Origin: an uncultured Ruficoccus sp.
Lineage (GTDB): Bacteria > Verrucomicrobiota > Verrucomicrobiia > Opitutales > Cerasicoccaceae
Assembly (NCBI GenBank): GCA_965140785.1
Contig: OZ223519.1
Coordinates: forward strand, 64,001 to 128,000
Reading direction: 5' to 3'
Length of the DNA stretch: 64,000 nucleotides
Made by a program: the position numbers and the translations under genes. Positions 17,690 through 40,040 of this stretch are shown here, one piece after another (position 1 is the stretch's first letter; each line of letters starts with the position of its first letter). The notes beneath the pieces were generated by a model, which was given only the letters and a program-made list of their open reading frames with translations, had not been told where the DNA came from and searched no databases.

Positions 17690-17882
17690 CAGATTTTGGC
17701 AAAAGGCGTCGGGTCTGTGGGAAGCGGCGATTCTGACGGGTGAAACGCAGAATGCGGCTTCTCGCGGCGAGGATGCGTAAACTTTTGCCAGCAGCGAGTT
17801 ACAAAAAATCCCGCTCGGTGTGCGAAGCGGGATTTTTTGTGGCGGGGTGGGTCGGTGCGCCCGCGACAGGGGAAAATGGGGT
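17690..17882. repeat. Non-coding repeat homologous to 38596-38790 (downstream flank of the rve transposase element)
   Basis: Shared blocks GGCGATTCTG, CGTAA.CTTTTGC..GCAGC, ACAAAAAATCCCGCTCGGTGTGCGA.GCGGGATTTTTTGTGGC and GCCCGCGACAGG. Confidence 0.85.
17801..17840. terminator. Bidirectional rho-independent terminator-like hairpin
   Basis: ACAAAAAATCCCGC...GCGGGATTTTTTGT, located between the convergent GH130 and pfkB-family genes. Second copy at 38706-38745. Confidence 0.7.
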
Positions 17883-28805: not shown

Positions 28806-30073
28806 TGTGGGGTTCCAAGCGCGACCGTCTTCGGAAGAATTCACGCAGTTTGACGACCCTTTCCGAACTCTCTTCAGACGTTTTTCCGTTTCAGGGCTAC
28901 AACAGCGTGTCGTTTTGACTCAATTTCGAGTTTTGTCAGGCAGCTATAGGCTCCTCCTTTCCGTTTTCGGGTTGGGCCTCTCGATAATAGTAGTTCAGCA
29001 AGCCTCCCAGCCGTTCACTTTTACGAATAGCTGAGTATTTATCGGGTTTGGTGGGCGAGTAGGGGAAAGGGATCAGATTGTCCAAGCCCTGGTGATTGCG
29101 TTCGTGGTGATAGTGCTCGACGTAGTTTTCGACGGCCTTTCGCAGTGATTTTTCACCGAGAAAAATGAAGTGGTCGAGACATTCGGTTTGCATGGATTTG
29201 ACGAAACGCTCGGCGTAACCATTTTGCTGAGGCGTGCCGATGCGGGTCTGGATGACCTCCGTGCCTGAGTCTTTGAGTGTCTTGCGGAATGCCTGGGTGT
29301 AGAGCGGGTCATGATCGCAGATAAAATATTTCATGCCATTGAGAAAGCCGTCCTCGGCGTCGGTGAGATTGCGGGCGACCTGTTCCATCACGCGACCATC
29401 GGTTTGGCAGCCAATGTGGGCGATGTGAACCTGGCGTTTGGCCAGCGACATGGCGAAAAACACGTGAAAGCGAACCAGTCTGCGCAGGGTCCAGACCTCG
29501 ACATTGAGAAAATCGGCAACGGCTATCACATCCATGTGGGAGCGCACGAAGGTTTTCCAGTTGGATTGCTTTGCGCGTTCAGGAGCGGGGAGGATGCCTG
29601 CGGAGCGAAGGATGTTGCCCACCGTTGTATCGCTGACGATATGTCCAAGGTTTTCCAATGTTCCTTGGATTCTGCCGTAACCCCAGTCGGGGTTCTCTTC
29701 GGCAAGCTTGACACAGGGTTCTCGAATGATCGCCATTTCCTTTTGACGCTCAGTTTGAGCATGCCGCTTCGCCGTGTATTTGGCGGCAATGAACCTGCGG
29801 TGCCAAGCCCATCAGCGTGCTTGGAGTTACGAGGTTTGCATACTCCTGAAGCGTCGCCCAGCCCAGCTTCTTACCTTTCTTCGCCAAGCTTCGTCGTTGA
29901 GCGTTAGTCAGGTCCAGCTTCTTGCCAGTGGCGTCGAACTGCTGCTTGAGGATGCGGTTCTCCTCAAGCAGATAATCAATGACTTGCTGCTGTTTTCGGT
30001 TCATCCAGCCTGCGATGGCCGAGAGCAAAATGATGGTCTGCGTCTTCAAAGAAAGATTTTTACAAACCTGCAA
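28806..30073 (-). mobile_element. Integrase-core (rve) transposase element with one frameshift, plus 3' non-coding flank
   Basis: AGWMNRKQQQVIDYLLEENRILK (29750-30073) joins, via a frameshift near 29808, ENPDWGYGRIQG...ADFL...DHDPLY...NGYAERFV...HYHHERNHQG...RLGGLLNYY (28936-29736). Confidence 0.88.
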
Positions 30074-35751: not shown

Positions 35752-35817
35752 TGACCGTGTCCACTTAAACTGTGCCACTTGCAAAGTTAGTCTGAGTGCT
35801 TAGAAAGGACTCAGACG

Positions 35818-36084
35818 ATGAAAGGCAAGCGATACAGTACAGAGCAAAAAATCCGCATTTTACGCGCCGCTGATGCTGGCAGAGCGATCGTGGATGTCTG
35901 CCGCGAGGCAGGGATCAGCGAGCAGACGTTCCACCGCTGGAAGCGGGAGCTTGGGATGCTGGAAGTCGATCAGGCCAAGCAACTGAAGGAACTGCAAAAG
36001 GAGAACGCTCGGCTGAAGCGTATGCTGGCGGACGAGATACTTGGTAAGGAGCTGCTGAAGGAGGCGCTCGAAAAAAAATGGTAA
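35818..36084 (+). CDS. IS3 transposase OrfA
   Basis: MKGKRYSTEQKIRIL...VCREAGISEQTFHRWKR...ENARLKRMLAD: HTH plus leucine zipper. Confidence 0.93.
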   Translation: MKGKRYSTEQKIRILRAADAGRAIVDVCREAGISEQTFHRWKRELGMLEVDQAKQLKELQKENARLKRMLADEILGKELLKEALEKKW

Positions 36085-37019
36085 GCCCTGCACACAAGCG
36101 CGAGATGGCGCAAACTCTGGTGTCGCAGGGCAGATGTTCAGCGCGGGCGGCCTGCCGTCACTTTGGGTTGCATCGCAGTACCTTCGGCTATCAGGCGAAG
36201 GAGACTACGCCCTGGTTGGCAAAGTTACGTGGGGCTTTGCGTCGCAAGAGCGAAGCGCATCCCGAGCTGGGTTACCCGAAAATCACTCATCTACTCAAGC
36301 GCGATGGTTGGGACGTAGGTAAGCGGCTGGTGCAGCGCCTGCGCCAGGAGATGGGGCTGAAGTGTCCGACTAAGAAGCCTCGTCAGCGTCGGCGCGGCCC
36401 CTCGACGGGCTTACCGACAAAGGCTACTCATCGCAACCACGTGTGGACCTGCGACTTCGTGGCCGACCGTACGGCTAAGGGCGGATCAATCCGCATGCTC
36501 ACGGTACTCGATGAGTACACCCGTGAGTGCCTGTGCATCCACGTCGATCGCCACCTCAACGCCGCCAAGGTGCGAGCCGTCATGAGCGAGTTGATCAGTG
36601 CCTACGGCAGCCCCGAGCACATCCGTAGCGACAACGGCAGCGAGTTTATCGAGAAGAGCCTGCGTAAATGGTACGCGGACGAGGAGATCAAGACGCTCTA
36701 CATTGAGCCGGGCAGTCCCTGGCAGAACGGCTACATAGAATCCTTCAACGGCAGACTCCGCGATGAGTGCCTCAACCGCGAGTGGTTTTATACGCTCACC
36801 GAGGCACGCGTGGTCATTGAGGACTGGAGGTGGAAATACAACAACATCCGCCCGCACCGTTCACTCGGACTGCTCACGCCGCTCGAGTTTGCAGCCAAAG
36901 AAACCGCACCAACCCCCTTCGACATCAACTTCCAAGGCATGGGCTACACTCGGGCTACGCCCTCCTTCCGCCCAAGCCTTGACACCCTCTACAACCTAAC
37001 CCTAGAATCACATCATTAA
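36078..37019 (+). CDS. IS3 transposase OrfB (DDE), -1 frame relative to OrfA
   Basis: WTCDF...LDEYTRE...RSDNGSEF...PWQNGYIESFNGRLRDE...YNNIRPHRSLG. Confidence 0.93.
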   Translation: MVSPAHKREMAQTLVSQGRCSARAACRHFGLHRSTFGYQAKETTPWLAKLRGALRRKSEAHPELGYPKITHLLKRDGWDVGKRLVQRLRQEMGLKCPTKKPRQRRRGPSTGLPTKATHRNHVWTCDFVADRTAKGGSIRMLTVLDEYTRECLCIHVDRHLNAAKVRAVMSELISAYGSPEHIRSDNGSEFIEKSLRKWYADEEIKTLYIEPGSPWQNGYIESFNGRLRDECLNREWFYTLTEARVVIEDWRWKYNNIRPHRSLGLLTPLEFAAKETAPTPFDINFQGMGYTRATPSFRPSLDTLYNLTLESHH

Positions 37020-37067
37020 CCCGCTCAGACTAACTCTCAATGCGGTACAGTTTGCGTAGGCAGGTCA

Positions 37068-38240
37068 CGGGTAAACCGATCGTTGATGTCTGCCGCGAGG
37101 CAGGGATCAGTGAGCAGACGTTCCACCGCTGGAAGCGTGAGCTTGGGATGTTGGAAGTTGACCAGGCCAAGCAGTTGAAGGAACTGCTGAAGGAGGCTCT
37201 CGAAAAAAAAATGGTAAGCCCTGCACACAAGCGCGAGATGGCGCAAACTCTGGTGTCGCAGGGCAGATGTTCAGCGCGGGCGGCCTGCCGTCACTTTGGG
37301 TTGCATCGAAGCACGTTTGGCTATCAGGCGAAGGAAGCTGCCCCTTGGTTGGCAAGGTTACGTGGAGCTTTGCGTCGCAAGAGCGAAGCGCATCCCGAGC
37401 TGGGTTACCCGAAAATCACGCGCCTGCTGAAAAAGGACGGCTGGGATATCGGTAAACGGCTGGTGCAGCGCCTGCGTCAGGAGATGGGGCTGAAGTGTCC
37501 GACCAAGAAGCCACGTCAGCGTCGGCGTGGTCCCTCGACGGGCTTGCCGACAAAGGCCACGCACCAGGGCCACGTGTGGACCTGCGACTTTGTTGCGGAC
37601 CGCACGGCTAAGGGTGGCTCCATCCGCATGCTCACGGTGCTCGACGAGTTTACCCGCGTACCGAACTGAGGCGAAGCCTCGGTGACAAAGCGCAGCGCCC
37701 ATGCCTGTGCATCCATGTGGATCGCCACCTCAACGCCGCCAAGGTGCGGGCCGTCATGAGTGAGTTGATCAGTGCCTACGGCAGCCCCGAGCACATTCGC
37801 TCCGACAACGGTTCGGAGTTTATCGAGAAGAGTCTGCGGGGTTGGTATGCCGACGAGGGCATCAAGACACTCTACATCGAACCGGGCAGCCCCTGGCAAA
37901 ACGGCTACATCTAGTCCTTCAACGGACGACTACGCGACGAGTGTCTCAACCGCGAGTGGTTTTACACGCTCACCGAGGCACGCGTTGTCATCGAAGATTG
38001 GCGCTGGAAGTATAACAACATCCGCCCGCATCGTTCTCTCGGACTGCTCACGCCACTTGAGTTTGCAGCAAAAGAAACAGCACCAGAACTCTTCGAAACC
38101 AACCTCCAAGGCATGGGCTACACTCGGGCTACGCCCTCCTTCCGCCCATGCCTTGATACCCTCTACAACCGAACACTCAATCACATCATTAATCCGCTCA
38201 GACTAACTCTCAATGCGGTACAGTTTGCGTAGGCAGGTTA
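37068..38240 (+). mobile_element. Degenerate IS3 copy 2 (left end missing)
   Basis: Begins mid-orfA directly after the IRR of copy 1. Has a ~60-bp deletion in orfA, a 43-nt insertion at 37659-37701, a TAG stop at ~37912, and an IRR ending ...GCAGGTTA. Confidence 0.92.
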
Positions 38241-38404
38241 GGTGTTTTTTCTAAAACATATTGTTCGATTTCTTTGCCGAAATAATTCTGACACTTGTCA
38301 CAAACCTTTCCTTTGAGCACTAAATCATCGTTTCCGAGTGACTCAGGAATAATATGCTCAATCGTTGAGAAAGGGCCATCGGCTTTGCAAAAAACGCATT
38401 TCAT
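38241..38404 (-). pseudogene. HNH endonuclease N-terminal fragment truncated by IS3 copy 2
   Basis: MKCVFC...EHIIPESLGN...VCDKCQNYFG is HNH_5-like; the frame runs into the IS right end. Confidence 0.75.
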
Positions 38405-38595: not shown

Positions 38596-39043
38596 GGATT
38601 TTTGGCGGGGGCATTGGGGCTGTGGAAGGGGGCGATTCTGGCGGTTGAAACTCAGAATACGGCTTTTGGAAGCGGGGTTGCGTAAGCTTTTGCTGGCAGC
38701 CACTTACAAAAAATCCCGCTCGGTGTGCGAGGCGGGATTTTTTGTGGCAGGGGTGGTCGGTGTGCCCGCGACAGGAAAAAGATGGGGTGGCAAGCGGGAC
38801 CGTCTTCGGAGGAATTCACGCAGTTCGGCGCCCCTTTCCGAACTCTCTTCAGACCTTTTATCGTTTCAGGGCCATAAAAGCGTGTCGTATTGACTCAATT
38901 TTGGGTTTTGTCAGACAGCGACAAGCGTCTCCTTTCCATTTCTGGGTTGGGCCTCGCGATAATAGTAGTTCAGCAAGTCTCCCAGCTGTGCGTGCTGGCT
39001 GACGCACTGCCTGTCACTTTTACAAATAGCTGAGGATTTATCG
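38596..39043 (-). mobile_element. 3' remnant of a second rve transposase element with its long non-coding flank
   Basis: 38783-39043 aligns with 28806-29044 (...LG.LLNYY.REAQPE...). 38596-38790 aligns with 17690-17882. Carries a 24-nt insertion at 38986-39009. Confidence 0.85.
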
Positions 39044-39048
39044 ACCTT

Positions 39049-40040
39049 AGCGGGAGTGTAGCCCATGTCCTGGAAGTTGATTTCGAAGAAGTCTGGTGCG
39101 GTTTCTTTTGCTGCAAACTCGAGCGGCGTGAGCAGTCCGATGGAACGGTGCGGACGGATGTTGTTGTACTGGGCGCTTCGCTAGTGTCGTCGTTACGCTC
39201 CTCGGTAGTCGGAGCGGATGTGCTCGGGGCTGCCATAGGCACTGATCAGTTCGCTCATGACGGCTCTGACTTTGGCGGTGTTGAGGTAGCGATCAACATG
39301 GATGCACAGACATGGGCGCTGCGCTTTGTCACCGAGGCTTCGCCTCAGTTCGGTACGCGGGTGTACTCGTCGAGCACAGTGAGCATGCGGATAGATTCGC
39401 CTTTGGCCGTGTGATCGGCCACTACCGAGCGCGGAGCGCGACATGACCACAAGAAAACAAGTCGCAGGTCCACACGTGGTTGCGATGAGTAGCCTTCATC
39501 GGTAAGCCCGTCGAGGGACCGTGCCGACGCTGACGAGGCTTCTTGGTCGGACACTTCAGCCCCATCTTTTGGCGCAGAGGTTGCGCCATCTCGCGCTTGT
39601 GTGCAGGGCTTATCGAGTCCGCGAGGCAGGACTCGCCATTTTCTCCGAGCGCCTCCTTCAGAAGCTTCTTGCCCAGTATCTCGTCGGCTAGCATGCGCTT
39701 CAGCCGTGCGTGTCAGGCCTTCTCGCTACGCTCGTGAACTCCTTTTGCAGTTCCTTCAGTTGCTTGGCCTGATCGACTTCCAGCATCCCAAGTGTCTTCG
39801 CTTTCGCTCGAGTGTCGCCGTGCCAATCGGCACAGGCTTGGTACGCGTTTCCAGCGGTGGAACGTCTGCTCGCTGATCCCCCGCCTCTCGGCAGACATCA
39901 ACGATCGATTGGCCCGCATCAGCGGCCCGTAATAGGCGGATCTTTTGTTCGGTACTGTATCGCTTGCCTTTCATCGTCTGAGTCCTTTCTAAGCACTCAG
40001 ACTAACTTTGCAAGCGGACCAGTTTAAGTGGACACGGTCA
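39049..40040 (-). mobile_element. Heavily degenerate IS3 copy 3 with six short insertions and two internal deletions
   Basis: IRL TGACCGTGTCCACTTAAACT at 40040. Aligns piecewise to copy 1; right end missing. Confidence 0.92.

Follow-up and report, generated by a model that had tools for sequence, protein, structure and literature searches.

SDR1-8, the small dispersed repeats (SDRs) of heterocystous cyanobacteria that Elhai and colleagues reportedly described in 2008, are said to be 21-27-nt units that lie in copies of insertion sequences (ISs), in spacers and within one another. Here we describe comparable inserts of 28-51 nt in decayed copies of an IS3-family element, found in a 64,000-nt stretch of DNA from an uncultured Ruficoccus sp. 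of the order Opitutales (contig OZ223519.1; the whole stretch is hereafter called the window), together with their relatives across the order. Going by what is reported of SDRs, the two kinds of repeat share a size class, hairpin cores, the lack of coding capacity and of a known enzyme, and insertion into ISs, spacers and each other; the SDR-like traits that we found are minis of 23-25 nt, nesting, and sites in both ISs and spacers. They differ in phylum and, in all likelihood, in sequence, and our elements have T(A/T)YCGA...CA ends, a GNA loop and the replacement of a target dinucleotide. By phylum and motif, the Opitutales elements are very probably a family separate from SDR1-8. A first-pass annotation of the window, made by a model from the letters alone, had named the SDRs as the nearest precedent, and on the features reported for them the comparison is apt.

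Members of the IS200/IS605 family have two different subterminal hairpins and insert 3' of a tetra- or pentanucleotide without removing bases, with a lagging-strand bias. Our elements resemble them in inserting in one orientation by a very short motif without duplication, and in the recognition of hairpins on single-stranded DNA that we propose below. They differ in that two target bases were lost in 16/16 comparisons. No strand bias was evident in G052, one of the element-bearing genomes of the order. The mobile GC clusters and 'byp' elements of yeast mitochondria are organellar, and byps are skipped by the ribosome between matched codons; the likeness here lies in hairpin inserts of 27-55 nt within coding sequence. 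We know of no well-studied transposition mechanism that leaves a replaced dinucleotide as its signature.

In repetitive extragenic palindromic (REP) sequences of the CGTC/TGTC type, the stem is 8-9 bp long and starts with A/T pairs, the loop has 4-5 nt and the tail is CCA. These REPs are known from five other phyla, mostly as head-to-head dimers, with intragenic copies and no associated transposase gene, and their description includes no target rule (PMC3733652). Our elements share with them a TGTC or CGTC beside the stem, short stem-loops, an unpaired tail, the lack of a transposase gene and intragenic copies, but have 3-8-bp stems, GNA loops, a TCGGTA far end, a second tail module and single copies. 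The TGTC/CGTC tag is present, whereas the elements fall outside the stem, loop and CCA-tail definition (Di Nocera 2013). REPs and REPINs are dispersed hairpin repeats thought to move single-stranded via an enzyme acting in trans (Bertels & Rainey 2011, PMC3116915), and the likeness to the REPIN-RAYT system extends to both properties, the second as proposed here. Our elements differ in having no GTAG tag (CTAC appears only when a C in the target precedes the element), in not being doublets and in not flanking the Y1 genes examined. Abundant REPs, some of them intragenic, are known from Opitutales, among them the GTAG REPs of Opitutus terrae (PMC3733652). The REP-encoded peptides GTGVPPV and VGPALAAG of O. 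terrae come from different sequences, and TACCGAG is absent from the supplements that list them (PMC3733652 supplement). Literature searches (small dispersed repeats, Verrucomicrobia REPs, Opitutales palindromic repeats and motif strings) found no description of the family. The 'undescribed class' of the first-pass annotation is nevertheless too strong a term for a family or variant that belongs with the REP/SDR kind and whose TGTC tag resembles that of the CGTC/TGTC REPs (Di Nocera 2013); the elements are selfish DNA of that kind.

We consider it likely that the window inserts belong to a family of mobile DNA elements of Opitutales that are very small (23-51 nt) and non-autonomous. Identical inserts in diverged IS copies, nesting, polymorphism and order-wide spread all bear out this reading, which the annotation had offered as 'tiny mobile elements'. 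The inserts were located by aligning copy 3 (and copy 2) of the IS3 to the intact copy 1 (Table 1), and in the genome of the window (G000) we distinguish six subfamilies, F1-F6, of 28-51 nt. The alignment of copy 3 to copy 1 confirmed the five insertions already reported, with their coordinates and sequence as quoted, and added a sixth in copy 2 that had been overlooked. Replacement of 2 nt of target without duplication, also claimed at first pass, holds at four copy 3 sites relative to copy 1, where the empty sites read GTG/AG/TGCC, GGG/AG/CTTGG, GGAG/AA/CGC and, on the other strand, CAC/GA/AGTC (slashes enclose the replaced bases). At 39170-39207 there is a deletion on one side: the 5' end of the element abuts a deletion of about 200 nt, whose edge GAC/AA/CGG is itself a plausible target. 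The same F1 site is filled in three more decayed IS3 copies of the genome. The pattern TGTC-N8-24-TCGGTA occurs 4 times in the window against 1.03 expected, and a fuller element pattern gave 23 matches in G000 against 0 for its reversed control.

Table 1. IS3 copies in the window and the elements inserted in them (window positions; slashes enclose replaced bases)
Feature	Position	Strand	Description
IS3 copy 1, intact	35752-37072	+	orfA 35818-36084, orfB 36078-37019; 'empty' reference for all insertion sites
IS3 copy 2, decayed	37073-38245	+	first ~133 nt gone; 60-nt deletion in orfA; abuts copy 1
43-nt element F2 (sixth insert)	37659-37701	+	in copy 2, same site as 39313-39355, 43/43 identical
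IS3 copy 3, decayed	38990-40040	-	two larger deletions; 70-90% identity to copy 1; carries five inserts
38-nt element F1	39170-39207	-	TACCGA-GGAGCGTAACGAC-GACA-CTAGCGAAGCGCCCA; CA end at site GGTGG/AA/RTACAAC
43-nt element F2	39313-39355	-	TACCGA + 8-bp hairpin, GAA loop + GACA + AAGCGCAGCGCCCA; AG of CCCGTG/AG/TGCC replaced
37-nt element F5	39423-39459	+	TACCGA-GCGCGGAGCGC-GACA-TGACCACAAGAAAACA; antisense to transposase gene; GA of GGCCAC/GA/AGTCG replaced
28-nt element F6	39711-39738	-	TTCACGAGCGTAGCGAGAAGGCCTGACA; in orfA; AA of AAGGAG/AA/CGC replaced
51-nt element F3	39793-39843	-	TACCAA + bulged 8-bp hairpin + GACA + CTCGAGCGAAAGCGAAGACA; AG of GCGGG/AG/CTTGG replaced

The target rule extends well beyond the window. 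We compared empty and filled sites within G000 (this IS3, a second IS3 family and an unrelated IS of the rve type), in an IS3 of two further genomes (G073 and G095) and in a Y1 gene unit of G052. In 16/16 comparisons the element replaces a purine dinucleotide (AG in 8, AA in 6 and GA in 2, with the boundary ambiguous by one base at AA sites), and in all of them target duplication is absent. The dinucleotide follows G in 11 cases, C in 4 and A in 1. Insertion takes place in one orientation at a short asymmetric target, usually G/RR. Many of the AG sites are the Glu codon of conserved transposase motifs, as in CGTG/AG/TGCCTG (RECL) and GATG/AG/TGYYTS (DECL). Since the empty state encodes conserved protein, empty is the ancestral state. 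The same spots are hit in different IS families, in gene spacers and in other element copies.

The elements share a common plan. The element strand begins 5'-T(A/T)YCGA, continues with a short hairpin, GACA or GACAC and a tail, and always ends CA-3'; a second GCGNAGCG is often present in the tail. The stem measures 3-8 bp and mostly carries a GNA loop of 3 nt, often as the d(GCGNAGC) mini-hairpin, and where the tagged REPs have their CCA tail these elements have TCGGTA. Complete elements range from 23 to 51 nt, the minis being 23-25 nt. As to the shared ends and internal TGTC proposed at first pass, TGTC or CGTC, which reads GACA or GACG in element orientation, borders the hairpin in each of the six subfamilies; the F6 copy at 39711-39738 lacks the TCGGTA end and its element strand begins TTCACGAG. 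The 'variable hairpin cores' describe three of the inserts, while those at 39170-39207 and 39711-39738 have only GCGNAGC-type mini-hairpins. GCGNAGC is described as a very stable DNA mini-hairpin in PMC13037366. Across copies, GCGNAGC and ACGNAGT alternate as pair-preserving (compensatory) forms. This alternation, the stability of the mini-hairpin and the GCGNAGCG apex of hairpins beside RAYT genes hint at a single-stranded DNA form. A search for G-T versus A-C asymmetry that might mark the folding strand gave 151 versus 145 with a regular expression that was too loose (721 cores, mostly chance); clear sense-strand wobble was seen in F2 only. An Rfam search of seven element loci in E-value mode returned tRNAs only.

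Several lines of evidence indicate movement. The F2 elements of copies 2 and 3 are identical at 43/43 positions, whereas the 50 nt on each side match at 83/100, mismatches occurring 3-10 nt away from it. Another IS3 family has a third F2 at the homologous site, with identity at 40/43 positions against 127/200 for its flanks. As insert identity exceeds flank identity, the F2 insert is younger than its surroundings. F6 is identical (28/28) in the window IS3 and across four copies from the second IS3 family. In G073, which belongs to a different taxonomic family, the homologous site of orfA holds a 29-nt relative; overall, identical inserts occupy homologous sites of IS copies that are only 64-83% alike. 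The elements also nest, with minis of 23-25 nt lying inside the tail (CAG/AA/TAACA) and inside the GAA loop of longer copies, and in G052 an AA-replacing mini is polymorphic between copies of the Y1 gene unit. Finally, two decayed copies at other places in the genome hold a single F3 that bridges sites 196 and 1009, with the left flank of the former and the right flank of the latter, while each of these sites is also occupied singly in other copies. This junction is what recombination between two direct copies would leave, and the deletion beside 39170-39207 has the same look.

An unbiased survey of 15-90-nt indels between paralogous repeats of G000 yielded 68 rows, of which 22 are these elements. 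The remainder comprise 11 rows of one ordinary 60-nt deletion, 23 rows of three other small hairpin-type insert classes and 12 miscellaneous rows. One such class is a GC-rich hairpin of 24-25 nt, GGCGGGCG...CAGCCCGCC, without T...CA ends and with GGC/CGG repeat flanks (L010:2289-2312 on contig C4; also C25:52370 and C49:1239); it occupies a homologous ...QN/GY... site in two unrelated IS families. Another is a 23-nt GGGAAGCTGCGAAGCGCTG.CCT class with a GCGAAGC mini-hairpin, which lies near the 5' end of an rve-type IS (L010:1435-1457) and accounts for 7/68 indel rows.

Recent activity is seen in the marine genome G073, where a 1345-bp IS3 bears two elements, one of 29 nt in orfA and one of 44 nt in orfB at LID/E/YTRECL. 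A DNA search of this genome found 45 matches to the insert-bearing IS3, 36 of them at 100% identity over the whole element. Of 30 loci fetched, 29 could be parsed, and 29/29 carry both inserts at 29 distinct places; at least 7 of the 29 have exact 4-bp flanking duplications, with boundaries as set in this analysis. Both inserts are in frame (+27 and +42 nt) and each brings one in-frame TGA, which in orfB is the sole defect reported by the protein search. Two other loci (L231, at 680-2015, and L232) have the orfA insert and lack the orfB insert, with the empty site GATG/AA/TATACG, and two more (L068 and L070) have the orfB insert and lack the orfA insert; no copy free of both was found in G073. 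Of the four possible haplotypes, three are thus found among copies otherwise no more than a base or two apart, which calls for recurrent insertion, gene conversion or precise loss in the recent past.

Contigs from public sequencing runs likewise show filled and empty alleles. One run, of unknown kind, holds the same empty allele as a 43-base skip with an extra A at a depth of 103 (bin total about 820), and loose ends in another run reveal an empty orfA site. No single deletion turns the filled allele into the empty one, which marks the latter as a DNA allele rather than a splice product. Contigs from an RNA library contain two further inserts, unspliced and each replacing exactly two bases, their cover lying outside the two G073 inserts. 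Either the insert-bearing IS of G073 owes its copies to mobilisation in trans or to a master copy since lost, or the in-frame TGA inserts leave the transposase functional. The elements have been recently active in marine Opitutales.

To investigate how widespread the elements are, we counted them in G000 and in the order. G000 holds 34 copies of the six subfamilies, all of them inside three IS families that make up 37,958 bases (0.87%) of the genome. Orientation is sense to the transposase gene in 29/34, the other five, all F5, being antisense; counting only distinct non-homologous sites in G000, G073 and G095, 10/11 are sense. The motif G-A-R is just 1.0-3 times as common on the sense strand as on the other, and for this reason we judge that the bias is probably real, the sample being small. 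Matches to a long-form pattern occur in 32/401 genomes of the order (reversed-pattern controls gave 0-1 per genome), with counts of 51 in G035, 50 in G073, 40 in G095 and 33 in G052; the rest of the window's genus, four genomes, gave 0-1 each. A scan of named genomes found at least 121 stretches. Among the 80 matches listed, 68 are from Verrucomicrobiota, mostly Opitutales: they were assigned to Opitutales, Opitutaceae, Pelagicoccus, Puniceicoccaceae and other Verrucomicrobiota (Opitutia, and Verrucomicrobiae including DG1235). Cultured bearers among the matches listed are Pelagicoccus mobilis KCTC 13126 and strain DG1235. The remaining 12/80 are single matches in other phyla (one an unclassified 'uncultured bacterium'), which by a rough estimate is about chance level.

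Outside G000 the setting is different. The copies that we looked at in G035, G052 and G137 lie between ordinary or housekeeping genes, and in G052 there are spacer regions made of nested element copies; pairs of elements there that seemed to bracket a gene proved to be nested repeat arrays and were rejected as candidates. In G035 (L072-L079), a 38-nt element sits inside a conserved repeat of about 170 nt, so that the roughly 51 copies of this genome reflect the spread of the larger repeat. Elements were also seen between the GGTTCG and AATCC of duplicated tRNA 3'-end fragments (L009:1375-1665, L005 and L027), downstream of intact tRNA-Pro, tRNA-Arg and tRNA-Ser in three genomes, with two tandem units of about 115 nt in L009; this arrangement looks like a miniature integrative unit or an attachment-site remnant. 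In G215, CGATTTTGTGGACACGAACAGCGTAGCG recurs about 85 times and has a GACAC...AGCGNAGCG module in common with the elements; it is probably the end of another repeat or IS.

In G000 the inserts occur only in decayed IS copies and in none of the 11 young ones; the G000 elements look old and probably arrived with or before the decayed IS lineages. Some observations count against the explanation that we favour. A low-information target alone has no power to explain why 34/34 copies fall in 0.87% of the genome; this confinement needs either arrival with the IS or extra target recognition. The target dinucleotides are not enriched in predicted loops of single-stranded DNA (0.48 vs 0.60 at 170 control sites). 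Folding of each window insert, on both strands and with RNA and DNA parameters, gave z values from +1.3 to -2.1, none significantly better than shuffles, in a procedure in which standard folding gives GNA mini-loops no score. A hairpin core is clear for three of the five window inserts first reported and rests on the mini-hairpin motif for the other two.

Could the segments instead be native to an older IS3 variant and merely inherited, with no insertion process at all? Several decayed copies do have the same insert at the same place, and in G000 the inserts are confined to diverged copies. However, the empty state of the intact copies encodes conserved residues (RECL, DECL, SEF and QNG motifs), the inserts are identical where the flanks have diverged by 17-36%, and members of one subfamily are found in three unrelated IS families as well as in gene spacers and other element copies, while presence is polymorphic among otherwise identical IS copies. 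Flank divergence, the conserved empty state and polymorphism contradict the native variant, which the annotation had itself named as a possible refutation, and leave it next to no probability. Its other proposal, a system that inactivates transposase genes, would amount to a host defence writing hairpin cassettes into them. The 34/34 G000 copies in three IS families, the repeated hits on conserved motifs of rve transposases and the 10/11 sense sites would fit such a defence. Yet copies elsewhere lie between housekeeping genes (those looked at in G035, G052 and G137), copies insert into each other, and the 11 young IS3 copies of G000 are untouched despite having target sites. The G073 IS3 with its two inserts has reached at least 29 loci (at least 7 with 4-bp duplications), and no guide, array or enzyme was found, so we regard a defence system as very unlikely.

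A homing process, in which a site-specific endonuclease cuts empty sites, a 2-nt overhang is lost and repair copies the filled paralogue, with new sites arising by rare end-joining of a free element, is one that we think improbable. It would account for near-fixed occupancy in G073 (29/29 with both inserts) alongside three of the four haplotypes, and the exact 2-nt loss would fit the trimming of a 2-nt overhang. Against it, diverged copies share an identical insert but differ 3-10 nt away with no conversion tract visible, nested and intergenic insertions have no homologous donor context, and no endonuclease candidate was found; the absent conversion tracts and the nested insertions speak against homing as the only route. 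It is also hard to believe that the inserts are tolerated interruptions, intron-like, bypassed or read through, that leave the in-frame IS3 active. The single TGA as the only block in each in-frame G073 insert (+27 and +42 nt), the lack of any G073 copy found free of both inserts and the sense-orientation bias fit this idea. But the empty allele GATG/AA/TATACG is not obtainable from the filled one by any single deletion, and the matching in-frame take-off and landing codons expected of the byp or gene 60 type are not visible at the two G073 inserts. Inserts in RNA-library contigs are unspliced (the two G073 inserts being outside their cover), most other inserts shift the frame (+26, +31, +35, +41, +49), and trans mobilisation or a lost master copy explains the copy number more simply. 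Retro-insertion, finally, would copy a small structured RNA by reverse transcription into nicked targets at the cost of 2 bp of target, as in R2. The precise 3' end (CA, often CCA after a terminal mini-helix) and the small target deletion, which resembles that of R2, agree with it, but the 5' ends are as precise as the 3' ends. Moreover, G073, which is 94% complete and shows the most recent activity, has no RVT_1 match, while the element-free G004 has one. For lack of such a match in G073, reverse transcription is unlikely and a DNA route is preferred over an RNA route; the R2-like scenario itself strikes us as highly improbable.

We therefore return to mobile elements without an enzyme of their own. 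They would be moved in trans by a DNA enzyme, encoded by the host or by another mobile element, that recognises the folded single strand. Our best guess, and a tentative one, is an HUH/Y1 (RAYT/IS200-like) nuclease-ligase that would cut on both sides of the purine dinucleotide. We favour it because its chemistry gives orientation-specific, duplication-free insertion beside a tiny motif and because Opitutales have many Y1 genes; in G073, G052 and G035, those of the RAYT type have hairpins with a GCGNAGCG apex on their flanks. Within a repeat family, spread may also proceed through transposition of the IS itself and gene conversion. Two copies in direct orientation can later recombine, deleting the DNA between them.

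The case for this enzyme is weakened on several sides. Y1_Tnp is found in 10/10 element-rich genomes but also in 14/18 element-poor ones. In G000 the Y1 genes are part of a 1006-bp unit whose inverted repeats are unrelated to the elements, and none of the Y1 genes examined (G000, G073, G052, G035) is flanked by elements. In G052, copies on the plus and minus strands are interspersed along a single contig with no replichore bias evident, the origin and terminus being unmapped. We know of no HUH transposition that removes target bases. No enzyme could be tied to the elements, and the first-pass statement that the window holds no candidate stands for the 20 open reading frames scanned around the locus.

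Two apparent links to Y1 genes were considered and rejected. A mini beside the Y1 genes of G052, where a REPtron would have its REP copies, proved to be an ordinary polymorphic insertion. A low-copy REP beside the G073 RAYT has only the AGCGAAGCG apex in common with the elements. In G073 (L233), a classical Y1 transposase gene of 158 aa is flanked by the low-copy REP CCAGAGGTGNAGCGAAGCGAAAYCTCTGG (500-560 and 1180-1300), which has 7 copies in G073, 5 in G046 and 1 in G095; its apex is the mini-hairpin of the micro-elements. In G052 and G152, Y1_Tnp genes of about 300-340 aa are strongly expanded, with 46 and 53 matches.

The host element itself is typical of its family. Three copies of this one IS3 adjoin each other in the window. 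Copy 1 has an A-run before the orfA stop and TGACC...GGTCA ends; its OrfA matches Pfam HTH_Tnp_1 and its OrfB rve/rve_3, and about 11 copies of its type occur in the genome at 98-100% identity. At 37070-37090, the end of copy 1 stands directly against copy 2, itself without its first ~133 nt, so the young IS landed in or beside the older copy. Outside copy 3, positions 38597-38989 hold two other dispersed repeats, matching 17692-17875 (82%) and 28808-29014 (86%). The latter repeat adjoins an rve_3 reading frame (28939-29736), making the stretch an IS graveyard.

Among bacterial mobile elements that are specific in both site and orientation, these are some of the smallest seen. One further possibility, which we regard as a long shot, is that Opitutales have a dedicated, novel DNA-insertion chemistry that cuts out a purine dinucleotide at sites selected by sequence and joins a 23-51-nt hairpin cassette in its place, that IS3 copies with in-frame inserts stay transposition-competent, and that the cassettes attenuate the transposase. 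If this were true, in-frame copies with one TGA would be tolerated via read-through or cassette removal, and the inserts would be attenuators rather than debris. The elements break or lengthen genes, seed deletions and confuse IS annotation. As they have been recently active and are present in cultured strains, the long-standing question of which agent moves transposase-less repeats of the REP/SDR type can be put to the test at the bench.

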